This document shows positions 20,762-64,000 of a stretch of DNA of 64,000 bases, piece by piece. A program made the translations under genes and the position numbers. Source of the DNA: a virus (taxonomy: Duplodnaviria; Caudoviricetes); the IMG/VR virus record IMGVR_UViG_3300030330_005139; one strand, given 5' to 3'. The notes beneath the pieces were generated by a model. That model was not told the DNA's origin and did no database searches. It worked only from the letters and a program-made list of their open reading frames with translations. Each line of letters opens with the position of its first letter. The first letter of the stretch is position 1.

Positions 20762-20823
20762 TGTGTTATAATGTTAGTAACCACCAAAGCTCCCCTTTGG
20801 TGTAATCACTAATCTAAAACGAC

Positions 20824-21015
20824 ATGTCGAGCACCCTTCTGGCAATTCAATCTCTTCGTAAAGTTTGGCGTGAGCAAGACTTCAAATTGAGTTCTGATCA
20901 ACAAAAACGTCTCGACGAGTTGACAGACCTTCGCCGCCGTGAAGTGAGTGAATTCTATGAACAGGGTCGCGTTTGGTCTGGTCCTTCTGAGGCTAGCAAA
21001 CCCGTCGAAGAGTGA
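20824..21015 (+). CDS. hypothetical protein (cassette after repeat 1)
   Basis: 63 aa ORF between the repeat and a terminator. Confidence 0.75.
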   Translation: MSSTLLAIQSLRKVWREQDFKLSSDQQKRLDELTDLRRREVSEFYEQGRVWSGPSEASKPVEE

Positions 21016-21021
21016 CAAACT

Positions 21022-21047
21022 GAGGGGGTTTCGCCCCCTCTTTTTTT
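21022..21047 (+). terminator. intrinsic terminator
   Basis: GAGGGGG-TTTCG-CCCCCTC followed by T7. Confidence 0.85.
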
Positions 21048-21060
21048 ATCTTAACTTATC

Positions 21061-21354
21061 ATGACAATGACTGAATCTAATTACAGAGTTCTGAAGTTTG
21101 GTAATCATCCCACCGAGGGTTTGTGGAACAGCAGAACATTCACTCGTTCGCTTGTTGAGGCAGAAAGTCTTTTTCATGAAGCAGAGGTTGAGCGTGCCAC
21201 TGGTGGAGATCTCATCGGTTCTGTTCTCATTAAGGTTGATGACGATTCCTGGCATGTCCTTGACAAGTTTGGCACAGAGGGTTACAGTATTGGTCTGTCT
21301 CAAGTTGGAGTGTTTGAGGTCTCAAATTCCGACACTGTTATGGATCTATCATGA
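21061..21354 (+). CDS. hypothetical protein
   Basis: 97 aa ORF. Confidence 0.7.
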   Translation: MTMTESNYRVLKFGNHPTEGLWNSRTFTRSLVEAESLFHEAEVERATGGDLIGSVLIKVDDDSWHVLDKFGTEGYSIGLSQVGVFEVSNSDTVMDLS

Positions 21355-21623
21355 AATTTGTTGACTTTACGGCAGAAGAATATACCTTCGTTACCAAATT
21401 ATTGGAAGAGACGAAGGCATCTACAAACAAGGATCTTAAAGTTCTGAATGGTGCAATCTTGGCTCTCAAAATTGCATCGGCTGACGACCATTACCGTCGT
21501 TATGTGAAGATTGCTCCTCATGGTGAAAGACTCACTAGGGAACAATTCTTTGAGGAACTTTATCATATAACTGAACAAGATTTGAAGTCAAGAGATGATA
21601 ACGGCGGTTTCGGTTATTGTTAG
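21351..21623 (+). CDS. hypothetical protein
   Basis: ATGA coupling; stop TAG lies inside repeat 2. Confidence 0.7.
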   Translation: MKFVDFTAEEYTFVTKLLEETKASTNKDLKVLNGAILALKIASADDHYRRYVKIAPHGERLTREQFFEELYHITEQDLKSRDDNGGFGYC

Positions 21624-21647
21624 TAACCTCTAAAGCTCCCCTTTAGT

Positions 21648-22553
21648 ATGACTAAACCTCTCACCCACATAGCCCACCCAGAAGACCTCATCCTCTCCGG
21701 TGAGCTCTGGGTGGTTGATGCCCTAACTAATCAAGCCAATCACATCTCTGTCAAGATTGATGGAGCACCTGCGATTGTCTGGGGAACTCACCCACAAACT
21801 GGTAAGTTCTTTGTTTCAACCAAGTCTGCTTTCAACAAGAAAAAGGACAAAATCTGTTACACCATTGATGATGTCAGAAAGCACTTCAAAGGTGTTTATG
21901 AACTCCAAGACATTCTGATCACCTGTCTTATGAACTTGCCCGTAACTGAGGGCATCTTCCAAGGTGATTTCATTGGTTTTGGTGGTGAAGGTCAGAAAGC
22001 TTTCACTCCTAACACTCTCACCTACACCTTCTCTGAGGCACCACATCAGACCATCATTGTCGCCCCTCATACTTATTATGAGGTGGATTCTGACACTCAC
22101 ATGAGTCAAGCAGTCCCACATCCTCTGAAGGGTGATCTCATCTCGACCGACGATTGTTTGTTCATTCAACCTTTCGTTGATCGTTTCCAACGTGATCACC
22201 GTCCCTTCAAGATTAACAAGTCTCGTTGGAACTTTCTCTCTCAGAAAGACGCACAAAGTGCAATCATCTCCATCAACGCTTTGATCCGTTCTGGTCAAGA
22301 ACTTGATGACCAAACTCTCATCGAGATCATCGGTGATGCTGACCTGGTTAACCTCTATCAACTGGTCATTTCTCTAAAAGAGATGTTTATGGATGATCTC
22401 ATCGTTTATGGTTCTCCGACCTGTTCTGTGGGGTCTGAGAGGGTTCTGGCAGAGGGTTTCGTTATTTACTCCGACCACGGTGACATTCCTCTGAAACTTG
22501 TCAATCGTCATGAGTTCGCATTCAACAACATGAACTATGGTAAATTCTCCTGA
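21648..22553 (+). CDS. putative ligase-like covalent nucleotidyltransferase-fold protein
   Basis: KIDG, FQGDF, EGFV and LKLV resemble ligase motifs I, III, IV and V; ATG inside repeat 2, stop abuts repeat 3. Confidence 0.6.
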   Translation: MTKPLTHIAHPEDLILSGELWVVDALTNQANHISVKIDGAPAIVWGTHPQTGKFFVSTKSAFNKKKDKICYTIDDVRKHFKGVYELQDILITCLMNLPVTEGIFQGDFIGFGGEGQKAFTPNTLTYTFSEAPHQTIIVAPHTYYEVDSDTHMSQAVPHPLKGDLISTDDCLFIQPFVDRFQRDHRPFKINKSRWNFLSQKDAQSAIISINALIRSGQELDDQTLIEIIGDADLVNLYQLVISLKEMFMDDLIVYGSPTCSVGSERVLAEGFVIYSDHGDIPLKLVNRHEFAFNNMNYGKFS

Positions 22554-22605
22554 TTATTGTTAGTAACCTCCAAAGATCACCTTTAGTGTAACCGCCCCCC
22601 AACAC

Positions 22606-22803
22606 ATGAACGAACAGAACTCCAATCAACTGCGAGACAAAAGCATTGACACAATGGGTCAGACTCTTTTTGACCGTTTCGCTGAACTTCTGGACGACGA
22701 TCAAGAAACCGCTAAGGCACTCCATTCTGAATGGGTTGTTGATGGTCAGGATCCCGAAGAAGGCGATTACGAGTTCATCTTTGTTGAAAAGATCTCCTCA
22801 TGA
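22606..22803 (+). CDS. hypothetical protein
   Basis: Starts 12 nt after repeat 3. Confidence 0.7.
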   Translation: MNEQNSNQLRDKSIDTMGQTLFDRFAELLDDDQETAKALHSEWVVDGQDPEEGDYEFIFVEKISS

Positions 22804-23006
22804 AAAATCTCTCAGATCGCACAATTTCTAACCTGGCAACTGCAGTCCATGAGTCTGTCGTCAAACAGATCTACAGTGATCCTAAATTCCTGACAGACTT
22901 GTCTGAAGCCCTTGGCAGATCCCTCACCGAGCTTTATGGTGAGATGGACGAACAACTAAGGTCAGATATTGGAATGTTAATTTTCGACAGGATGACAATC
23001 AAATGA
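22800..23006 (+). CDS. hypothetical protein
   Basis: ATGA coupling. Confidence 0.7.
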   Translation: MKNLSDRTISNLATAVHESVVKQIYSDPKFLTDLSEALGRSLTELYGEMDEQLRSDIGMLIFDRMTIK

Positions 23007-23215
23007 GCAAATGGATTGTTCAGAAACCCTCCATTCTTGACCCAAAACAAATCTCTCACGGGTTTGTCATCAATGATGGAGAATATGCAGCAGTCCCAAT
23101 GAGTAACAGCGACGCACAACTGATGGTCATCCATAACGGATCACCACTCAAAGTTTGTCGTAACGAATCATCAGCTTTCAACTTTATCAAGAAACACCAA
23201 AAACGAAGAAAATGA
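23003..23215 (+). CDS. hypothetical protein
   Basis: ATGA coupling. Confidence 0.7.
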   Translation: MSKWIVQKPSILDPKQISHGFVINDGEYAAVPMSNSDAQLMVIHNGSPLKVCRNESSAFNFIKKHQKRRK

Positions 23216-23424
23216 AACAAACATTCAGATTCTTTTCATCCATCATCATCGGTTCTGTGGCACTTGCTGGTGTCTCTTTCATCTTTGATCAACAACGTAA
23301 CCAACAAGATTTTGTTGGTGGGCGAGTTGTTGGTTATGTTGAAGTTTCTCCTGGTGTTTGTGAATCCACCTTCATGGGAGAAGACAATGAGTTCTACATT
23401 ATTCAAGAGGAGTGCAACAAATGA
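23212..23424 (+). CDS. hypothetical membrane-anchored protein
   Basis: N-terminal hydrophobic helix; ATGA coupling. Confidence 0.7.
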   Translation: MKQTFRFFSSIIIGSVALAGVSFIFDQQRNQQDFVGGRVVGYVEVSPGVCESTFMGEDNEFYIIQEECNK

Positions 23425-23606
23425 TCAACACTGATCTTCTCGCAGTCATCGAAAGTCTGGAAGATGGTGTGAATGTCTCATATGAGGCACTTGATGATCC
23501 TGATCGGGGTTATACTTACGCCACTAGATATTCACGAGTCACGATGACTCACGCCATTGAATGTCTCAAACTCATCATTGAACAAAACCAAAAAGAAAAT
23601 GATTGA
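23421..23606 (+). CDS. hypothetical protein
   Basis: Start re-called to ATG 23421 (ATGA coupling). Confidence 0.7.
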   Translation: MINTDLLAVIESLEDGVNVSYEALDDPDRGYTYATRYSRVTMTHAIECLKLIIEQNQKEND

Positions 23607-23769
23607 CACTGATCTTCTCATCGCTTACGAAGAAGGAACCATTGAAAAAGATCAGTTCCTTGAATTGTTCCAACAAATTTATGACTCTAGGGCATATACC
23701 TGGCTTCAAGGTCATTATGGTCGCACACTTTCTGACCTGGCACAAGCTGGTCTGATAAATCTCAAGTGA
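23599..23769 (+). CDS. hypothetical protein
   Basis: MIDTDLL..WLQGHYGRT; stop abuts repeat 4. Confidence 0.7.
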   Translation: MIDTDLLIAYEEGTIEKDQFLELFQQIYDSRAYTWLQGHYGRTLSDLAQAGLINLK

Positions 23770-23820
23770 TTATTGTTAGTTACCCCTAAAGCTCCCCTTT
23801 AGTGTAACCACTGATTTACT

Positions 23821-24009
23821 ATGACACTCACTGAAAGAAACCAAAAACTCTTCGAACTTCGTCAGAAACTCAACAAAGCCCGTGCAGAAGTTGCATGGAT
23901 TGAGCAAGAGATCTGGCTCACCAAAGATCAATATGATCGTGAGGGTCTTGACCTCTTCAAAGAAATGGGTCTCGATAGTCCCATGTTCTACGAAATTTAC
24001 GGAGGTTGA
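23821..24009 (+). CDS. hypothetical coiled-coil protein
   Basis: Starts 11 nt after repeat 4. Confidence 0.7.
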   Translation: MTLTERNQKLFELRQKLNKARAEVAWIEQEIWLTKDQYDREGLDLFKEMGLDSPMFYEIYGG

Positions 24010-24013
24010 TGAC

Positions 24014-24181
24014 ATGATCACATCTAAGACACAAATGCTCAAGATCATGAAAACCTGTGCTCATGCAGATACTCTCACCCGAGAAGAAAAGTTTCTTGTC
24101 TTCTGTAGAGTATGTGACAACATGCTCAAAGAGGGCAGAATGACCAAGGCAACACATAAACGGTTCACTCAGATTTGGTGA
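24014..24181 (+). CDS. hypothetical protein
   Basis: ATG 24014; stop 2 nt before repeat 5. Confidence 0.7.
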   Translation: MITSKTQMLKIMKTCAHADTLTREEKFLVFCRVCDNMLKEGRMTKATHKRFTQIW

Positions 24182-24235
24182 CATTATTGTTAGTTACCCC
24201 TAAAGCTCCCCTTTAGTGTAACCACGTTTTCCATT

Positions 24236-24583
24236 ATGACTTTCGTAGCTCCACAACACAAATCAGAATATCTCACTGAGTGTCTCATTGAGGTTCTCAA
24301 CAACCGTGAGAAAGTGAACGCTCTTGAGTCTTCACGAACCGTTTACACTAACTTCGAGTATGAAGTTGGTCGTAAGTACATCAAAGTCTGGTCTTATCTG
24401 GTCGATGGTGATGAACGTCTCCGTGGTCGTTCCTGTTACATGTTCGTGGACAAAGAGACTGGAGCGGTTTACAAACCAGCCTCTTATAAGGCACCCGCTA
24501 AGGGCATTCGGTTCCAGATTGATCAGTTGGCTGATAACCCTGACATCTGTGATCCTTATGGGAGTTTCCTTTACATCCGATGA
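24236..24583 (+). CDS. hypothetical phage protein
   Basis: GRKYIKV..FVDKETGAVYKPASYKAPAKGIRF; lies between repeat 5 and a terminator. Confidence 0.8.
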   Translation: MTFVAPQHKSEYLTECLIEVLNNREKVNALESSRTVYTNFEYEVGRKYIKVWSYLVDGDERLRGRSCYMFVDKETGAVYKPASYKAPAKGIRFQIDQLADNPDICDPYGSFLYIR

Positions 24584-24587
24584 GAAT

Positions 24588-24615
24588 GAGAGAGGTTTAC
24601 AACCTCTCTTTTTTT
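24588..24615 (+). terminator. intrinsic terminator
   Basis: GAGAGAGGTT-TAC-AACCTCTCTT followed by T run. Confidence 0.8.
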
Positions 24616-24713
24616 ATGTTAAAATCCTTTTGTCTCAATGAAGGCGCTAAGAATCTAGAGTACATTGTTAGTAACCTCTAAAGCTCTCCTGTAGTGTAAC
24701 TTACTTGGTTTTT

Positions 24714-24908
24714 ATGACCAGTTCTGATCTTCGTCCTAATGTTGTGATGGAAATGGATGATTATTCATCCACCTTTGAACTCCTAACCCTTGACTTTAAG
24801 GCACGAGTAAAGATTCACAACTATGAAGTAAAGAAACTCGGTGAGGACATCAGAGCACTTTTCAACTTCGTTTCTGATAAGATGTTCTTCAAACTCATCG
24901 ACATGTGA
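24714..24908 (+). CDS. hypothetical protein
   Basis: ATG 12 nt after repeat 6. Confidence 0.65.
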   Translation: MTSSDLRPNVVMEMDDYSSTFELLTLDFKARVKIHNYEVKKLGEDIRALFNFVSDKMFFKLIDM

Positions 24909-24913
24909 TGAAC

Positions 24914-24939
24914 GAGAGAGGAGTAATCCTCTCTTTTTT
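24914..24939 (+). terminator. intrinsic terminator
   Basis: GAGAGAGGA-GTAA-TCCTCTCT followed by a T run merging into repeat 7. Confidence 0.8.
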
Positions 24940-24990
24940 ATTGTTAGTTACCTCCAAAGCTCACCCTTAGTGTAATCACTCATTCAAACC

Positions 24991-25170
24991 ATGATTCACT
25001 ATCTCGTTAAGTGTCCCTCTGATCCTTATGAGAACACCGATTGTTTAAGTGATCTCGACAGGGCTTGGGATCTCTGTCTCTCACTCGCTGAAGAGTATGG
25101 ATACGCCGAAGTTGGTTACTATAACATCCAAGGACATTACCAACTCGTCGGTGATTATTGTTTCAACTGA
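24991..25170 (+). CDS. hypothetical protein (59 aa)
   Basis: MIHYLVKCPSDPYE..GDYCFN after repeat 7; below ORF-track cutoff. Confidence 0.7.
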   Translation: MIHYLVKCPSDPYENTDCLSDLDRAWDLCLSLAEEYGYAEVGYYNIQGHYQLVGDYCFN

Positions 25171-25172
25171 TT

Positions 25173-25325
25173 ATGAATAATAATACCACTAACTCTGTCA
25201 TTTCTCTTGTTACCTATCTTCAGGAACTGGAAGAGAACAACAAAATCAATGAGAGTGAGTACAAAAGAGCGTTGAAACTTGTAAACAATATTGTTAGTAA
25301 CCTCCAAAACTCTCCTTTAGTATAA
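25173..25325 (+). CDS. hypothetical protein (50 aa) reading through repeat 8
   Basis: Open frame ending NNIVSNLQNSPLV. Confidence 0.55.
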   Translation: MNNNTTNSVISLVTYLQELEENNKINESEYKRALKLVNNIVSNLQNSPLV

Positions 25326-25339
25326 CCCACTCAATCATT

Positions 25340-25474
25340 ATGACACCTGAAGAATTTGAAGAAAATGTCAGAATCATCACGGGAGATCCTAACTGGTCCC
25401 TCCCTGATGATGAAGACAATAATGTTAGTAACCCCCAAAGCTCTCCTTTAGTACAACCCACTCAACCATTATGA
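25340..25474 (+). CDS. hypothetical protein (44 aa) reading through repeat 9
   Basis: Open frame ending NNVSNPQSSPLVQPTQPL; ATGA overlap with next gene. Confidence 0.5.
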   Translation: MTPEEFEENVRIITGDPNWSLPDDEDNNVSNPQSSPLVQPTQPL

Positions 25475-25659
25475 AAACTAAGAATCCTCGTCTTGTCTTT
25501 GGTGATGATGAATTCACCTTCTTCCGTGTTAAACTCCTTGAAGAGGTAAAAGCTCAGAAGAGGTTGTTCAACCCAACTCAAGCAAAGAAAGAACAGAAGA
25601 AGGCAGACGATTGTCTTCGTTATCTGATGAACCATCAACCACACCAACTGGAATTCTGA
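25471..25659 (+). CDS. hypothetical protein
   Basis: Starts 12 nt after repeat 9. Confidence 0.7.
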   Translation: MKTKNPRLVFGDDEFTFFRVKLLEEVKAQKRLFNPTQAKKEQKKADDCLRYLMNHQPHQLEF

Positions 25660-25808
25660 TGAACACTTTACAAGTCGAACAATTACAGGAAGACATCATC
25701 ACAATCATGGAATCTCATTTTCCTAATGAGAACGTAGATGAGGTGATTGAACTTCTATGTGACGCTGTTAACCAAAACATTTCACCCACACTTTCTGATC
25801 ATGACTAA
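25659..25808 (+). CDS. hypothetical protein
   Basis: TGATG coupling. Confidence 0.6.
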   Translation: MNTLQVEQLQEDIITIMESHFPNENVDEVIELLCDAVNQNISPTLSDHD

Positions 25809-26091
25809 AACTGAAGCACTCGCCATCTTCAAGCGAGCAGGATACACTTTCATTGGATACAAGGACACTGGCTGGGGTTGTAAGCAGTACTACTTCACTC
25901 ACCCCAACATTCAAGGAACTGAGGTTTCTTATGATCTGCCACTGTTGAGAAAGAGAGCAAGACATCTCGACATCAAGATGTGGCATGATGAGTATAAGGA
26001 ACAGCTGAGACAGGGCATTCAGGAGACTCTCTTCACTGACACGGAGATTGAGTGTAATTACTTCATCGAGAACCCTGTTGTAGTCGCCTAA
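25801..26091 (+). CDS. hypothetical protein
   Basis: ATG 25801; stop overlaps base 1 of repeat 10. Confidence 0.7.
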   Translation: MTKTEALAIFKRAGYTFIGYKDTGWGCKQYYFTHPNIQGTEVSYDLPLLRKRARHLDIKMWHDEYKEQLRQGIQETLFTDTEIECNYFIENPVVVA

Positions 26092-26148
26092 TATTGTTAG
26101 TTACCTCCAAAGCTCCCCTTTAGTGTAACCACTCATTCAACTCAAATC

Positions 26149-26631
26149 ATGGCAACTCGTGGACGAATTGGAATCAAACTTTCTGATGGTTCCATCCTCT
26201 CAGCTTATCATCACTGGGACTCCTATCCTCAGTGGCTCGGTGTTAACCTGGTGAAGAACTTCAATTCTTTTCAGAAAGCAGCTGAACTCATCGATGGTGG
26301 TGACATGTCAGCATGTTACACTACTCATACTTGGGAGTCTGAACCTCTCAAACGAGAGATCATTCAACCTGATGGATCTTCTAAGTTCGAGTACATCAAA
26401 GACAATGAAGGCAACTGGGTTTACACCAAAGTGAAGCCAGAAGCTGGTCCTCAGTATTACTCTGAGCGTGGTGAGGATTGTCCTCCCCGTCTCGATCCTG
26501 ACCTTTTCGAGTATCTCTCCAAAGGCGAAGAATTCGCATACGTTTTTGAAGGTGGAACCTGGATATGTTATGATCTACATGAGTTCGATAGTGAGGAACC
26601 TGAAATTGTTGAAATCCCTCAGGTTCTCTGA
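26149..26631 (+). CDS. hypothetical phage protein
   Basis: MATRGRIG..YHHWDSYP motif; single-gene cassette between repeats 10 and 11. Confidence 0.8.
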   Translation: MATRGRIGIKLSDGSILSAYHHWDSYPQWLGVNLVKNFNSFQKAAELIDGGDMSACYTTHTWESEPLKREIIQPDGSSKFEYIKDNEGNWVYTKVKPEAGPQYYSERGEDCPPRLDPDLFEYLSKGEEFAYVFEGGTWICYDLHEFDSEEPEIVEIPQVL

Positions 26632-26690
26632 TTATTGTTTGTAACCTCTAAAGATCCCCTTTAGTGTAATCAACCATTTTCTCTAAACTG

Positions 26691-26909
26691 ATGACCAACC
26701 CTTCACAAACCCATAAAGCTCTTCAACTCCTTCGTGATGGGTTCATGATTGAGTTGACTGAAAAGATCTACACCGATGATCGATTCACAAATCTCATGAT
26801 GGATCTCACCTCTGAGTTTGTTGAGCAAAACATTCCCGTTGTTGATGAAGATCTCCAAGTGGATCTGGCACTGATGATGATGGAATCGATCTCGCTTCGT
26901 TCTTATTGA
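26691..26909 (+). CDS. hypothetical protein
   Basis: Follows repeat 11. Confidence 0.7.
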   Translation: MTNPSQTHKALQLLRDGFMIELTEKIYTDDRFTNLMMDLTSEFVEQNIPVVDEDLQVDLALMMMESISLRSY

Positions 26910-26916
26910 TTTAAGT

Positions 26917-27435
26917 GTGACCGTGAAAACCAACCAAGAATTTATTTCCCTTGTAGAAGAGAGAACTCAATCAATTCTTTCCACCAAAGGTGATGTTGGG
27001 CGTCAGGCAATCGCAACGACTCGCGGTCAACAGGTGGAGAAAGCAGCAGCAATCTTATTATCGGATCACCCCAACGTTGAGAGTGTGGTTGAACAAGTCT
27101 TTGAAGAGGAAGTAGACGAGTTCTCCAACATTGACCTGGTTGTTACCACTAAAGACGGTCGAACAGTTTATGTACCCTGTGCTCGTGATCTTTGGTTGGG
27201 GACATCACAACAAGATCGCCTTCAGATTGTATGGGCAAAGTTTAAGGGTGGACTGTTTAATGACCATGATGTCTGTTATCTCTGCCTGGATGATATTAAC
27301 ACAATCTTGAACAAAGAGCACCGCAAGAGTGCCAGACGGGGACCAAAGATCAAAAACTGCTGTCGTGTTCTATTTGAAGCTGGAGTGATAATGAACTTCG
27401 AACACCTTTGGAATCACCTTCTCACCACTGATTGA
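26917..27435 (+). CDS. hypothetical protein, possible PD-(D/E)XK nuclease-like fold
   Basis: GTG start; RG..VE helix followed by IDLVV..VYV pattern; catalytic motif incomplete. Confidence 0.5.
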   Translation: MTVKTNQEFISLVEERTQSILSTKGDVGRQAIATTRGQQVEKAAAILLSDHPNVESVVEQVFEEEVDEFSNIDLVVTTKDGRTVYVPCARDLWLGTSQQDRLQIVWAKFKGGLFNDHDVCYLCLDDINTILNKEHRKSARRGPKIKNCCRVLFEAGVIMNFEHLWNHLLTTD

Positions 27436-27493
27436 TGGTGATTATTGTTTGTAACCTCCAAAGCTCCCCCTTAGTGTAACCATGTTTTTCATT

Positions 27494-27688
27494 ATGGCAT
27501 TTCTCGACTGGATTCAAGAAGCAATCGGTTCTAAAGTTGAAGACGAATTTGGCATGGTTCATGTCATCACAGGTGGCAAACTTGTGGCTGACTCTCCCAT
27601 GTGGCCGATGATTCAACTGACTGATGACATGGGTGTTCTACGATATGTCACTCTTGATCGTTTCATGGAACTCGTTTCTGTTGGGTGA
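27494..27688 (+). CDS. hypothetical protein
   Basis: Single-gene cassette between repeats 12 and 13; alternative ATG at 27482. Confidence 0.7.
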   Translation: MAFLDWIQEAIGSKVEDEFGMVHVITGGKLVADSPMWPMIQLTDDMGVLRYVTLDRFMELVSVG

Positions 27689-27803
27689 TATTGTTTGTTA
27701 CCTCCAAAGCTCTTCATTAGTGTAACCAGGACTTCTTCTCTAAGGTTGTTTCTCTGAAAAGACTTCTTCCTTAGAGTTGTTTCTCCTCTTAAACAAAAAC
27801 ATC

Positions 27804-28010
27804 ATGGTCTATCTCATCTCTCAATCCAACGGTTGCACATACACTCTCGACCCCGATCATTCCCGAGTTCTGTATTACGCACCTTTGTTGTCCGATGGTA
27901 CTTGTGAAACCGCATTCTCAGCTTACGCTGAAGTCGAATGGGACGAATTGGATGAAGATGTTCTTAACGAAGCAGATCGTTGTTATCACCTTCTGATGTC
28001 TGATCGTTGA
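27804..28010 (+). CDS. hypothetical protein
   Basis: ATG 27804; cassette between repeats 13 and 14. Confidence 0.7.
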   Translation: MVYLISQSNGCTYTLDPDHSRVLYYAPLLSDGTCETAFSAYAEVEWDELDEDVLNEADRCYHLLMSDR

Positions 28011-28064
28011 GGATTATTGTTTGTTACCTCCAAAGCTCTTCATTAGTGTAACCACATCAACCTC

Positions 28065-28208
28065 ATGAAACTCGTTCTTTTCGTCATCGTTGGAATTCTG
28101 TTCTGGACGAGTGATGACGCACGAAACTTTACCGCTAATCAACTCAATAACGCAGCTGAAATCGTCCGACCTGATACTAACAAGAACTCCTTCACAATCA
28201 AATTCTGA
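28065..28208 (+). CDS. small membrane/secreted protein (47 aa)
   Basis: MKLVLFVIVGILFW..; stop abuts repeat 15. Confidence 0.7.
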   Translation: MKLVLFVIVGILFWTSDDARNFTANQLNNAAEIVRPDTNKNSFTIKF

Positions 28209-28264
28209 TTATTGTTTGTTACCACCAAAGCTCCCCTTTAGTGTAACCACTCATTCAACCAATC

Positions 28265-28501
28265 ATGACTAACACCACTTACAACGGCTGGGCCAATTAC
28301 GAGACCTGGAATGTCGCTCTCTGGCTTGGAAATGACGAATCGATGTATCAAATGGCTCGGATGTTCCGCCATCATGGTTATAAGTCACTTTCACACATGT
28401 TGGAAGAAACTTTCGGTTCTGTGACTCCCGATGGTGTATATTGGAAGCACTCTGATCTTGACATTGAAAGTCTCAATGAAATGTTAGAGGATGATTTCTG
28501 A
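28265..28501 (+). CDS. hypothetical phage protein
   Basis: YNGWANYETWNVALW..TPDGV motif. Confidence 0.8.
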   Translation: MTNTTYNGWANYETWNVALWLGNDESMYQMARMFRHHGYKSLSHMLEETFGSVTPDGVYWKHSDLDIESLNEMLEDDF

Positions 28502-28503
28502 TT

Positions 28504-28791
28504 ATGTCATCAATTTATCAACTCCGCGGATCCACTTTGGATCCTTTTCTTTCTGCTAAACTTGCACCTTTCATTCACGCACATCGTCCACATGATAAAC
28601 CTCCCGCTAAAGAAGATTTGGATAAAGGTGATTACATCCCCAAAGAATCGCCATTGTCTAAAGATAACATCATCGACACTTATAAGGCAATTAAGTATCA
28701 CCAAGACCTTGAATGGTTAAAGAGAAAGAGAGAGTATAATAGTAAGTGGAAAGGATACAGATCTCATTTTGCGTTAGGTATCTCCGAATGA
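28504..28791 (+). CDS. hypothetical protein
   Basis: 95 aa; ATGA coupling to next gene. Confidence 0.6.
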   Translation: MSSIYQLRGSTLDPFLSAKLAPFIHAHRPHDKPPAKEDLDKGDYIPKESPLSKDNIIDTYKAIKYHQDLEWLKRKREYNSKWKGYRSHFALGISE

Positions 28792-29249
28792 AAGAATTTG
28801 ATTATGAACTTGATTACAAACGTCTTGACTTTACAGATGAAGAAACTCGTCAACTTTATCGTATTGGAAGGGGAGAACAAGGGGTTTTATTGGTACGCCC
28901 TTACACAGACGATATTTGTGCTCATTGGAAATTTAAAACCCCTCGTTTAGCATCATTATCATCACAAAAGATTCTAAAGATGTATGAAGATTATAAGGAG
29001 AATAAGGACTTTATTGGTATGGATATGTGTCGTAAGTTTTTAGAGATGGGTTTCACAAGAGCAAGAAGATATGCCAATCATAAGGATGGAAAGAAGTATA
29101 ATTCTCAGGGGGAGGTGTTACCTCAGGAGAAGGATTGGAGAACATCACCTAAGGCACAATCTGCTGTCATTTTTAAGAAGATAAGGGACCAAGTTGCTTA
29201 TGATCCTGTTTATAAGGAGATGAGAAGGTTATGGAGGGATAATGAGTAA
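28788..29249 (+). CDS. DUF4385-like protein
   Basis: YRIGRGEQGVL..PY..WKFKT..DFIGMDMCRKFLEMGFTRARRYANH; start re-called to ATG 28788. Confidence 0.8.
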   Translation: MKEFDYELDYKRLDFTDEETRQLYRIGRGEQGVLLVRPYTDDICAHWKFKTPRLASLSSQKILKMYEDYKENKDFIGMDMCRKFLEMGFTRARRYANHKDGKKYNSQGEVLPQEKDWRTSPKAQSAVIFKKIRDQVAYDPVYKEMRRLWRDNE

Positions 29250-29535
29250 ATGGTCCTAAAAAAAGGTCATAAATAACACTTTTTTATTAAATAAATGGTT
29301 TTTTAAATGTGTATGAGTGTTTTATTGTTTTCCACAAGTAATGTTCAATTCTGTGGAAATCGTGTGGAATAGTGTGATAAACTGTGGAAAAGTAACAGAA
29401 TAAGAGAGAGAATTATGGTCATCTTTTATCGTCCTAAATGTCTCCTGCCGTTGTGACTTATGTGTCTGGAAATGTGCCAGGTCTTGTGATCTTATTGTCA
29501 GTTTATGTCACCTGGCGTTGTGATCTTGGCGAGCA
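29250..29535. other. putative replication origin-like element
   Basis: AT-rich tract 29256-29330; TTTTCCACA-type boxes at 29328, 29352, 29363, 29373 and 29383; ~34-bp repeats at 29437-29530. Confidence 0.55.
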
Positions 29536-29626
29536 TTCTAACAGAAGGACTCAGAAATGTCAACCCCCCTCCGAGACACTCCCACCCCCAGATTGCAATT
29601 CCTTATGTATGACTTTCGCAACACAC

Positions 29627-29656
29627 TTAACACAGTGGAGATATACTTGTTATAAT
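29627..29656 (+). promoter_or_regulatory. sigma70-like promoter with extended -10
   Basis: TTAACA-18-TATAAT with TG motif. Confidence 0.6.
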
Positions 29657-29694
29657 ACTTTTGTCCTCATAAAGGCACTGAGACTCAGCAGCAT

Positions 29695-30243
29695 ATGAAT
29701 ATACTTACCAAGACACTTTTAGGCACTCTGAGTCTACTCAGCACCATCACTGCCACTGTACTCTCAGGAGAACAGATTGGTAAGTATCACTTCATGACTG
29801 GTGAAGACTTTGGAGAACATGAAGCACTTGCCACACAACTGATTGATACACTGAACCAGATGAATGTGCCTGTGTTGGATGGTACTAAGAATGAACTCTC
29901 ACAGTGTACATCAAAGACGAGTAATGTTCTGGGGTACTACTCAGCAAAGCATGATGTGATGGTGATTTGTACTAAGGATGTTCCAGATTGGTTGAGGTTT
30001 GAGACATTGGTGCATGAGACAGTTCATGTCATTCAAGACGCCAGAGATGGGTTGGAGAATGACACATTAGGGCAACCTGGTAGGAGTTACATTTCTACCC
30101 TATATGGAGATCTGGCTAAGAAGAAGCGCCGCCTAATCCGTGAGTCTTATCCACAGTCTCAGTGGAATGTTGAGGTGGAGGCATTCTACTTTGAGACGAA
30201 ACCTCAGGTGGTGTTGAATGAACTGAAGACGTGGGCATTCTGA
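29695..30243 (+). CDS. signal-peptide zincin-like metallopeptidase
   Basis: Hydrophobic N-terminus; LVHETVHVIQD; EVEA. Confidence 0.75.
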   Translation: MNILTKTLLGTLSLLSTITATVLSGEQIGKYHFMTGEDFGEHEALATQLIDTLNQMNVPVLDGTKNELSQCTSKTSNVLGYYSAKHDVMVICTKDVPDWLRFETLVHETVHVIQDARDGLENDTLGQPGRSYISTLYGDLAKKKRRLIRESYPQSQWNVEVEAFYFETKPQVVLNELKTWAF

Positions 30244-30282
30244 TGGTGTTATTGTTAGTAACCTCGAAACCTCTTCTTTAGT

Positions 30283-30519
30283 ATGAACAACACTTCTACC
30301 ATCACTTTCCGTCAAGCACTTGTCATTCTTGAAGAACACTTTGACTCAACCTATCGTGGCATCAAAAGTGTTCGTGAAATGTGTTCAGATTTGACTGACG
30401 CGATGTATTGGGACAAGGAAGATCCCAACACAATCTATCATCAATTCGAGACTAAATTTGGTCCGAATCGTATTGTCAAAGACGATCAAATCATCAAACT
30501 TGCTCTACACTACGTTTGA
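30283..30519 (+). CDS. hypothetical protein
   Basis: ATG inside repeat 16. Confidence 0.7.
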   Translation: MNNTSTITFRQALVILEEHFDSTYRGIKSVREMCSDLTDAMYWDKEDPNTIYHQFETKFGPNRIVKDDQIIKLALHYV

Positions 30520-30527
30520 CCCATTGA

Positions 30528-30556
30528 TTGACAACTAAGGAAGAAACAGTTATTAT
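30528..30556 (+). promoter_or_regulatory. sigma70-like promoter
   Basis: TTGACA-17-TATTAT. Confidence 0.75.
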
Positions 30557-30560
30557 ACAT

Positions 30561-30709
30561 ATGTGAGACCAAATCCCTAAGGTCTATAAACTTAGAGGGA
30601 CACATAGAGAGTGGTTACTTTATGTGAGCTGTAAAGATTGGTGGTTCTTTCTTTATAGTCTAGTGGTTACAAAAAACAAGGGCTGGGGGTGGTTCCCCTG
30701 GTCCTTTTT
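30561..30709 (+). ncRNA. putative ~150-nt structured sRNA with four GUGGUU motifs
   Basis: Own promoter and terminator, no ORF; G-U-containing hairpins at 30601-30626, 30628-30659 and 30678-30706, each with UGGUU in the loop. Confidence 0.65.
30678..30709 (+). terminator. intrinsic terminator
   Basis: AAGGGCTGGGGG-TGGTT-CCCCTGGTCCTT followed by T run. Confidence 0.75.
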
Positions 30710-30769
30710 ATTGCCTGGTTGTTATCACTGAAGTGGTGGTTATTATGTGACACAAAGTAACACTGAGAT

Positions 30770-30798
30770 TTGACAAATAAGAACAGTTCTGGTATACT
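30770..30798 (+). promoter_or_regulatory. sigma70-like promoter
   Basis: TTGACA-17-TATACT with TG extended -10. Confidence 0.75.
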
Positions 30799-31040
30799 GA
30801 AGGGACAGTGATTTCCGTTGTTATAGTATATCGGGGTGTCCGGCTTAGTGAATAATAAGTAATAAGGGTAATAAGGGTTAACCCCCGAATGACCCCCCCC
30901 CTACTTTTTTCGAAAAGTCTAACCTACAAAGGTGACAATTCGAGCGAACAATATCTTTCTAATAAAAATATTTCTGAGGTATACGAAGGTAAATCTATGT
31001 CGAATTCAATGAGACACCCGTCGAAACACTTAAAGCACTT

Positions 31041-31208
31041 ATGAGACCAGAAACAAGAAAGTCCATGGAGATGTTATTCACCGCCCGTTGGAATGTCCCG
31101 AAGGCAGCCAGACACTGTAACCTCACAGATAAGGAAATGAAGATTACTTTCAATGAGTATTGTCGTCTCAACCCTCCCACCTGGAAAGTCTCTGAGACCC
31201 CCCTGTGA
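31041..31208 (+). CDS. small cyanophage-type protein (55 aa)
   Basis: MRPETRKSMEMLFTARWNVPKAARHCNLTDKEMKITFNEYC..; below ORF-track cutoff. Confidence 0.7.
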   Translation: MRPETRKSMEMLFTARWNVPKAARHCNLTDKEMKITFNEYCRLNPPTWKVSETPL

Positions 31209-31282
31209 TCCCCTCAGAGAGGCTTTATGACACTCAGTGTGTGTTTATGTTATAACTAAGATATCCTTACAATTACTCACCT

Positions 31283-31459
31283 ATGATTGAAAGTAAAGGA
31301 GAGGTTTATCATGTTTACTGTGAAAGAGAATGTGTGATGAATAATCTTCCAAAAGAAAAGTTTGAGTCTGTGTGGGAATTCTGTAAAGAACTGCAAGACT
31401 CTCGGTTTTCTTATGAGAGATGTGATACAATCAAAACACTCGAAGAGGAGAGTTATTGA
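31283..31459 (+). CDS. hypothetical protein (58 aa)
   Basis: Open frame MIESKGEVYHVY..EEESY. Confidence 0.6.
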   Translation: MIESKGEVYHVYCERECVMNNLPKEKFESVWEFCKELQDSRFSYERCDTIKTLEEESY

Positions 31460-31461
31460 CC

Positions 31462-31617
31462 ATGAAGAAGTATCTGGGTCACTGTGTTGGTCAGGTCGGA
31501 GTTCCGGCAATTCATAACGTCATCGTCGAAGCTCGTAATCCAATTCAAGCTCGACAGTTCCTTGAGGCTCGTTATCCGGGTTACACGAAGTATTACACAA
31601 GCTCACAGGTTTCCTGA
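31462..31617 (+). CDS. hypothetical protein (51 aa)
   Basis: GAGGAG RBS-like sequence upstream; VEA.N..QAR..LEARYPG. Confidence 0.6.
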   Translation: MKKYLGHCVGQVGVPAIHNVIVEARNPIQARQFLEARYPGYTKYYTSSQVS

Positions 31618-31635
31618 AAGTGAGGTGCAACCGAA

Positions 31636-63281: not shown

Positions 63282-63288
63282 ATAAATA
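63282..63288 (+). promoter_or_regulatory. T4-type late promoter
   Basis: ATAAATA after the gp14 stop codon. Confidence 0.7.
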
Positions 63289-63313
63289 ACTTAGCAAGGA
63301 GTAACCACAGAAA

Positions 63314-64000
63314 ATGGCAAAACAGGTAATTGGCATTGGAACAACAGCAAATGATGGAACAGGAGATTCCCTGCGAGTCAGTGCTGAGAAGTCAAACGAC
63401 AACTTTACTGAGGTTTACACTCTTCTGGGTGATGGTGCTACCTTGCCTTCTGGAATTGTCACCACACTTACAGCTGGGACCAACGTTACACTTTCGGGTT
63501 CAACCGGAAATGTAACCATCAACGCTTCGATTACTGGAGGATCAACAGCAGAAGTCAGTGCGAACACATTGGTGGTTACTGGAGTTTCCACACTTGGTGT
63601 CATTACTGGTGCAACTTCCCTTGGTGTCGTTGATGTTTTTGCAACCACATTGACAGGTAATCTGACTGGTAATCTGACTGGTAATGTGACAGGTAACCTG
63701 ACAGGTGATGTAACTGGTGATGGATCAAACCTGACAGGAATCACTACACTGATTCAAGCTGGAGATAATGTAACTGTAACTACGGCTTCTGGTATTACCA
63801 CAATTTCTTCAGCAGGTGTTTCTACTGCTGAAGTTAGAGCAAATACTCTTGTCGTTACTGGTATCACTACTCTTGGTATTGTTACTGGAGTAACCTCAGT
63901 TGAGGCTACAGACTTCTATGGAAATGGATCACAACTGGTTGATGGTAAGTGGACTCTGGGTGCTAACAATTCAGATCATTATACTTTCACTGGAATTGGT
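63314..64000 (+). CDS. 3'-truncated fibre protein with gp9/gp10-like N-terminus
   Basis: MAKQVIGIGTTANDGTGDSLR..NDNFTEVY; TGNL repeats; open to the window end. Confidence 0.8.
   Translation, partial: MAKQVIGIGTTANDGTGDSLRVSAEKSNDNFTEVYTLLGDGATLPSGIVTTLTAGTNVTLSGSTGNVTINASITGGSTAEVSANTLVVTGVSTLGVITGATSLGVVDVFATTLTGNLTGNLTGNVTGNLTGDVTGDGSNLTGITTLIQAGDNVTVTTASGITTISSAGVSTAEVRANTLVVTGITTLGIVTGVTSVEATDFYGNGSQLVDGKWTLGANNSDHYTFTGIG

Follow-up and report, generated by a model that had tools for sequence, protein, structure and literature searches.

Trans-acting base-pairing sRNAs of the GcvB type have G/U-rich seeds. The element described here, a probable sRNA gene of a cyanophage, resembles these RNAs and the phage and prophage RNA DicF in having its own promoter, an intrinsic terminator, a length within 100–200 nt and a short, exposed predicted seed. 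Like them it could reach many mRNAs near the ribosome entry site, and its G/U content would suit wobble-tolerant targeting. It differs from them in that there is no homology of sequence or structure (the Rfam searches reported below are negative), in that its seed is placed in a hairpin loop and not in a linear stretch, and in that its proposed targets are the phage's own genes. We know of no Hfq-type chaperone in the marine picocyanobacteria.

The C4 antisense RNA of phages P1 and P7 is a small RNA that represses genes of the phage encoding it (PMC8198154). C4 is cut out of the transcript of the operon that it controls, acts through a short complementary stretch close to the start of translation, and serves lysogenic immunity. 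The RNA studied here is likewise encoded by a phage and would act in a similar way, but the phage is lytic, the RNA has a separate gene and many candidate targets instead of one, and it has no Rfam C4 match at E up to 10. The CsrB and RsmZ RNAs share with it a short motif that is repeated through successive hairpin loops, including that of the terminator. In the cyanophage RNA, however, the motif is UGGU(U)/GUGGUU instead of GGA and is present in only 3–4 copies, and no CsrA-like partner was found among the neighbouring genes. By these features it falls outside the CsrB/RsmZ type as that type is defined. Cyanobacteria are not known to have CsrA.

Several non-coding RNAs are carried by T4-like cyanophages, namely the CfrI antisense RNA and the PhotoRC-II, wcaG, manA and glnA motifs (PMC2984593, PMC9964418, PMC2864571). 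None of them matches the element. CfrI is a cis-antisense RNA and the rest are cis-regulatory or widespread structured motifs, whereas the cyanophage sRNA is free-standing and is restricted to one small lineage. T4-type phages also carry PeSL cassettes, in which short regulatory repeats head small genes in hyperplastic regions (PMC2839356). The repeat of about 42 bp that lies upstream of the sRNA resembles PeSL, and the early element of T4-like cyanophages, in heading small genes in a hyperplastic region, but it is not sigma-70-like and as a rule has no terminator stem-loop.

Gene anatomy and predicted fold

The window analysed here is a stretch of viral DNA of 64 kb. Among its large + strand genes there are matches to T4-type families of the baseplate, the tail fibre and head closure, and to a ferrochelatase/2OG oxygenase. 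At the nucleotide level it matches cyanophage records, those of Synechococcus and Prochlorococcus phages included, and all of them belong to the Kyanoviridae wherever the taxonomy was checked. The sRNA lies immediately after an array of repeats, in a hyperplastic region of small + strand genes. The features discussed in the text are listed in Table 1.

Table 1 Positions of the sRNA gene, its predicted structural elements and the associated repeat features in the window
Feature	Position	Strand	Description
Repeat array	20768–30290	+	16 copies of a repeat of about 42 bp heading small genes; candidate target set
Candidate target box	26125–26134	+	GTAACCACTC, 3' end of the cassette repeat; same 10-mer at 28243–28252
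Promoter P1	30528–30556	+	-35 TTGACA (30528–30533), 17-bp spacer, -10 TATTAT (30551–30556); 11 of 12 consensus matches
Predicted sRNA transcript	30562–30711	+	About 148 nt; putative start 5–7 nt past the -10, end at the T run
Closing helix, 5' arm	30567–30571	+	GACCA, pairs with 30664–30668 inside the third GTGGTT; pair probabilities 0.66–0.99
Hairpin 1	30574–30600	+	Bulged, 9 pairs; does not contain GTGGTT
Hairpin 2	30601–30626	+	9-bp stem, 8-nt loop AGUGGUUA at 30610–30617; the one fully exposed motif (P unpaired 0.88)
Hairpin 3	30628–30659	+	10-bp stem and weak 2-bp inner helix; second motif (30641), only the UGGU core exposed
Third motif copy	30663–30670	+	GTGGTTAC; 3' arm of the closing helix, P unpaired 0.001
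Intrinsic terminator	30678–30711	+	12-pair stem (30678–30706), loop UGGUU with the fourth GTGGTT (30689), then T run
Fifth GTGGTT	30736–30757	+	In an incomplete second copy of the P1 -10/start region (GTTATTAT...TGTGA); past the terminator, outside the transcript, missing in L011

The initial annotation described a TTGACA-17-TATTAT promoter followed by about 150 nt with no ORF and then by a terminator, and this arrangement is present, with the refinement that the RNA region is better described as having no conserved ORF. When the sequence variants (described below) were compared, none was found on either strand. A frame of 35 aa on the + strand is disrupted by two 1-nt indels in L011, and a frame of 31 aa on the - strand has 5 nucleotide changes that give 4 residue changes, being thus mostly non-synonymous. 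The -35 of P1 is invariant across all of the variants and the -10 is kept, reading TAGTAT in G001. Promoters with 11 of 12 consensus matches number only four in 12 kb, all within 29.5–30.8 kb; by our own estimate about 0.2 would be expected per 12 kb. L011 retains the terminator stem, with a single bulge in it. Promoter and terminator enclose precisely the folding unit, P1 lying 5–7 nt before the first folded base. A free-standing sRNA gene is expected to have a promoter directly upstream and an intrinsic terminator at its 3' end; both were found here, and both are kept in relatives.

A second promoter with 11 of 12 matches, P2 (30770–30798), lies directly beyond the terminator and serves the downstream genes. 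An attenuating riboswitch or leader was dismissed, since the downstream genes have this promoter of their own. Between P2 and a 55-aa gene (phrog_1308) at 31041 there is a leader that may be as long as about 235 nt. This leader contains a C run, a short tandem repeat at 30859–30878 (GTAATAAGG, 2.2 copies) and a box, CTAACCTACAAAGG, that is shared with G001; there is a similar stretch in S-B43 and a diverged one in L011. Allowing up to 2 mismatches, the box was found in none of 79 other cyanophage loci around the 55-aa gene, the single match (L107) belonging to G001. Two more promoters with 11 of 12 matches face each other within 29535–29656, at 29563 on the - strand and 29627 on the + strand.

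The fold of the RNA region is specific to one strand. For 30562–30712, the + strand has a minimum free energy of -53.8 kcal/mol (z -4.37), which none of 200 shuffles equalled, and the - strand of the same region has a z of only -0.98. Folding was also scanned over 2554 windows of 151 nt across the 64 kb, on a 25-nt grid that did not sample the exact sRNA window. Compared with these, the sRNA region has the largest asymmetry between + and - strand folding, and only one + strand window is more stable, at -54.5 kcal/mol. In the predicted shape, a short helix closes off a group of three hairpins, beyond which stands the hairpin of the terminator. Pair probabilities are mostly at least 0.7, with the weakest at 0.62–0.66, and about 10 of the 46 predicted pairs are G-U. 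The repeats inside the sRNA are short and diverged only, and an internal repeat comparison shows that hairpins 2 and 3 resemble diverged duplicates. The stems are kept in all three variants; that of hairpin 3 has 4 variable positions, all of which stay paired by way of G-U. The changes are one-sided, with no double compensatory change among the three, the divergence being too small for covariation. Elsewhere in the window, the 151 nt at 701–851 belong to the most stable windows of either strand (-54.5 and -55.2 kcal/mol); a late-promoter-like ATAAATA near 850 and, at about 895–925, a hairpin resembling a terminator come just after them.

GTGGTT occurs on the + strand at 30611, 30641, 30663, 30689 and 30736, which is five times in 131 nt. 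The remaining window has 19 copies on the + strand in 64 kb, or about 0.04 expected per 131 nt. The first four copies are invariant in all three variants. The initial annotation gave the same five positions, with the fifth past the terminator, and placed three copies in the loops of stems. This is true of those at 30611, 30641 and 30689, but the copy at 30611 is the only one that is fully open, and the other two show just the UGGU(U) core (4–5 nt). With the copy at 30663 buried in the closing helix and the fifth outside the RNA, the description of the sRNA as multivalent was an overstatement.

Searches for a known RNA family were negative. The Rfam search that had been suggested as a check was run over the whole window with the Rfam 15 covariance models, and recognised no family at the gathering thresholds, the models of manA, wcaG, C4, Yfr1/2, CsrB/Rsm, ToxI and 6S included; at E up to 10 the only match was to cow-rumen-3, which scored 15.5 bits where the gathering score is 86.7. 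ARAGORN found no tRNA or tmRNA genes in the whole window. A type III antitoxin RNA (ToxI-like, with tandem repeats of about 34–40 nt and a toxin gene) was rejected, as there is no tandem array and no toxin family nearby. Binding of tRNA 3' ends (ACCA) by the UGGU loops was considered and set aside as unsupported.

Because promoter, terminator, strand-specific fold, the lack of a conserved ORF and the lack of an Rfam or tRNA match are found together, the most economical reading is that 30528–30711 is probably an independent sRNA gene with a product of about 148 nt. The original call of an sRNA gene is thus well supported by its promoter, its terminator, its fold on one strand and the absence of a conserved ORF. 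The gene anatomy and the fold are observed directly; transcription we infer.

Distribution of the element

The sRNA is known in only three sequence variants, all of them from marine metagenomes. Viral, metagenome and genome collections were scanned with motif patterns, the viral matches being judged by eye and those from metagenomes and genomes by covariance model R1 only. Pattern scans and R1 together found the element in G001 and L011, both from IMG/VR, and in two metagenome contigs, L150 and L207. The nearest record to the window is the contig G001. L150 is identical to the window and L207 to L011, and G002 contains L011. The other viral pattern matches were tandem coding repeats (of Gly-Gly-Tyr type) and chance matches, and were rejected, as was a GTGGTT cluster in S-B43, the sole match among 52 cyanophage records, which is antisense inside a CDS. 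None of the other metagenome and genome pattern matches was recognised by R1.

R1 was also run on defined sets of sequences. The element is absent from 93 cyanophage loci around the neighbouring genes, a set in which R1 recognised only the window itself, added to it, and from 49 of 50 records that include the complete S-B43 and S-H38, the sole match being G002. Matches in 80 metagenome loci were to the known relatives only, and 80 prokaryote loci, including Prochlorococcus and Synechococcus, do not have it. Overall, about 140 further loci or records of cyanophages, the complete S-B43 among them, do not have the sRNA. Searches of 50,697 phage records by megablast and blastn left the RNA part unmatched, and matched only the flanking genes of 78 and 55 aa.

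The three variants differ by about 3–6% in the RNA core and by up to about 11% in the terminator. The block made up of the 78-aa gene and the RNA (30283–30712) is 94–97% identical among them, third codon positions included, while the conserved genes directly downstream (30770–31635) are only 64–86% identical. These figures suggest a mosaic boundary, with the block of 78-aa gene and RNA recently exchanged. Because the identity is uniform and extends to third codon positions, the conservation of the block is to be read as recent ancestry and not as demonstrated selection. The element is probably a new family of phage sRNA that is confined to one small lineage.

The cassette repeat and its complementarity to the RNA

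Related copies of the repeat are present in G001 (15 copies, L250), where array and sRNA occur together, and in S-B43 (7 dispersed copies, L251–L257). The exact repeat pattern was not found in Syn9 or S-H38. The repeat has two conserved sequence blocks and a 6-bp hairpin, whose most frequent variant reads as a C/A mismatch on the + strand and as a U-G wobble in the sense of the - strand. In S-B43 this hairpin is missing, and the sequence of the element is ...CACTATAGTG.

The box at the 3' end of the repeat is also present in versions of 8–9 nt at 23804, 24218 and 28048, and wobble-compatible variants are found in 13 of the 16 copies. The window has 12 copies of GTAACCAC, where 1.4 would be expected; six of these are in repeats and two are antisense in the RNA. 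GTAACCAC is also found ahead of the gene at 63314, between the AAGGAG Shine-Dalgarno and the ATG, where it may be an additional pairing site or a coincidence; the stretch at 63283–63316 has the T4-type late-promoter-like AATAAATA, followed by AAGGAG.

In most copies the box, counted from the purine after TTTAGT, is 17–19 nt upstream of the ATG, and no Shine-Dalgarno is present on the cassette leaders. Two copies (21614 and 30249) have an ATG built in, which replaces the box directly after TTTAGT. An ATG in this place fits a start of the cassette transcripts at the purine after TTTAGT, which would put the box at the 5' end of the mRNA and make two of the genes leaderless. Alternatively, TAGTRT may be a -10 element, in which case the box would be upstream of the start and transcribed only by read-through.

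The initial annotation proposed that the sRNA could pair with the shared leader of the cassette mRNAs, and quoted complementarities to the repeat copies at 20768, 23770, 26091 and 28209. All of these are present. With wobble allowed, the exposed loop 2 (9 nt) forms at least 7 contiguous pairs with 13 of the 16 leaders in the window and 13 of the 15 in G001, and only 9 of 2000 permutations of the loop did as well (p about 0.005). At the level of sequence, the antisense relation between loop and box is not due to chance. For the sRNA as a whole the result is marginal: when its reverse complement was aligned locally with the repeats, 33 of 500 shuffles were as good.

The predicted pairing energies are weak. 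They were obtained from our own accessibility-aware helix scan, which replaced ViennaRNA duplexfold, a program that allows long interior loops and is unrealistic here. The mean energy is -4.4 and the best -7.8 kcal/mol, and 56 of 100 dinucleotide-shuffled RNAs match or beat these values. The comparison with shuffled controls, which had been suggested together with the proposal, has thus given no support for strong pairing. The array leaders score above 38 control leaders (Mann-Whitney p 8e-4, for copies that are not independent). A target scan across the window found equally good sites within unrelated coding sequence, among which the array sites do not stand out. In addition, the complete phage S-B43 keeps an AACCAC-type box in its repeats and does not have the sRNA, which implies that the box is not maintained for this RNA. 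The complementarity is observed to be non-random, and from here on pairing in vivo and the direction of its effect are what we infer.

Possible functions and their meaning for cyanophages

We hypothesise that host RNA polymerase would read the sRNA from the near-consensus sigma-70-type promoter and would stop at the intrinsic terminator, and that the same terminator may also halt read-through from the upstream cassette array. Hairpin 2 is predicted to offer an open 8-nt loop as seed, with a core made purely of G and U. The seed loop would pair with the GUAACCAC-type box, possibly assisted by the loops of the terminator and of hairpin 3. This box closes the 42-bp repeat before most of the cassette genes, and would be at or next to the 5' end of the mRNA. 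Pairing would block ribosome entry on short leaders that have no Shine-Dalgarno, and a single RNA may in this way dampen the whole cassette class together. A seed of G and U only should tolerate any transition in the target, so that one RNA could cover leaders that have diverged.

Leader pairing is the best single mechanism that we can offer; next come another target or a protein partner, then a role in cis at the 3' end, and then sites at the level of DNA. As the explanation of the whole, pairing of loop 2 with the repeat box to regulate the cassette genes is the one that we prefer, and we put it forward tentatively. It is possible, if on the whole doubtful, that the RNA is real and acts elsewhere, either on a host mRNA or sRNA that has AACCAC or ACCA, or by titrating a protein through its UGGU(U) loops in the manner of CsrB/RsmZ, so that the match to the box would be incidental or a trace of common origin. 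Three loops exposing the same UGGU(U) core, and four motifs that are invariant in the variants, agree with such a role, as do a leader pairing that is no better than that of shuffles or of random coding sites and the presence of the box in S-B43 where there is no RNA. However, the neighbouring genes are phrogs of unknown function or DUFs and offer no candidate binding protein, the motif differs from the GGA that Csr/Rsm sponges carry, and the complementarity of loop and box (permutation p about 0.005) would be left unexplained.

The terminator scan is empty between the last repeat (30249) and 30678, so that read-through from the array would end at this structure. It could thus be a cis element, providing a structured 3' end and terminator for the array transcripts that shields them from 3' exonucleases and insulates the next unit, with P1 minor or fortuitous and the motif a by-product of hairpin duplication. 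The resemblance of hairpins 2 and 3 to diverged duplicates and the strong promoter immediately after the terminator fit this proposal, which we nevertheless regard as unlikely: P1 has 11 of 12 consensus positions where about 0.2 such sites are expected per 12 kb, is 5–7 nt before the first folded base and is kept in all variants, and a simple terminator does not need a multi-helix domain of 110 nt. It is more improbable again that the locus works as DNA, as a roadblock, for instance, or as a site of control where the array ends, with four or five inverted AACCAC/GTAACC sites binding the factor that binds the repeat box. The same 8-mer is indeed shared in opposite orientation, the repeat behaves as a DNA element (with two conserved blocks, and a hairpin lost in S-B43), and the - strand sites, as we read them, alternate between two box types with a spacing of 23–29 bp. 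That spacing, however, lacks helical phasing, CCAC is the core conserved in the RNA where the repeat conserves GTAACC, and strand-asymmetric folding with many G-U pairs points to selection on + strand RNA. The least probable reading, to which we give very little weight, is that the segment has no function, being a recently acquired mosaic piece that folds, and resembles a promoter and terminator, by chance. The very narrow distribution and a divergence too low to show selection would be compatible with this, but that a consensus promoter, a terminator, so extreme a fold and five clustered copies of the motif should coincide by chance is very unlikely.

Returning to pairing with the cassette leaders, its timing in the infection cycle can be considered. 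Doron et al. (in 2016) reportedly found that a novel element drives the early genes of T4-like cyanophages, and that host-like promoters drive the middle genes. If this scheme holds here, the sRNA would be a product of the middle phase and the cassettes would be early genes. We therefore speculate, with more doubt than confidence, that this is an 'anti-repeat' sRNA, which is made from a host-type promoter and shuts off the early class of cassette mRNAs by way of their common 5' box, with a seed built for tolerance of transitions.

T4-like cyanophages rank with the most abundant viruses of the ocean, and the regulatory RNAs known from them are few. Even if pairing with the leaders fails, the element is still a well-defined and probably new RNA family, although its very narrow distribution limits its general importance. 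T4-like cyanophages shut off their early genes without the MotA, AsiA and RegB of T4. A free-standing sRNA that lies at the end of an early-type array and is antisense to the box shared by that array provides a concrete hypothesis that is cheap to test. If it is true, the anti-repeat sRNA would act as a temporal switch made of RNA, in the role that the proteins RegB and RegA have in T4.
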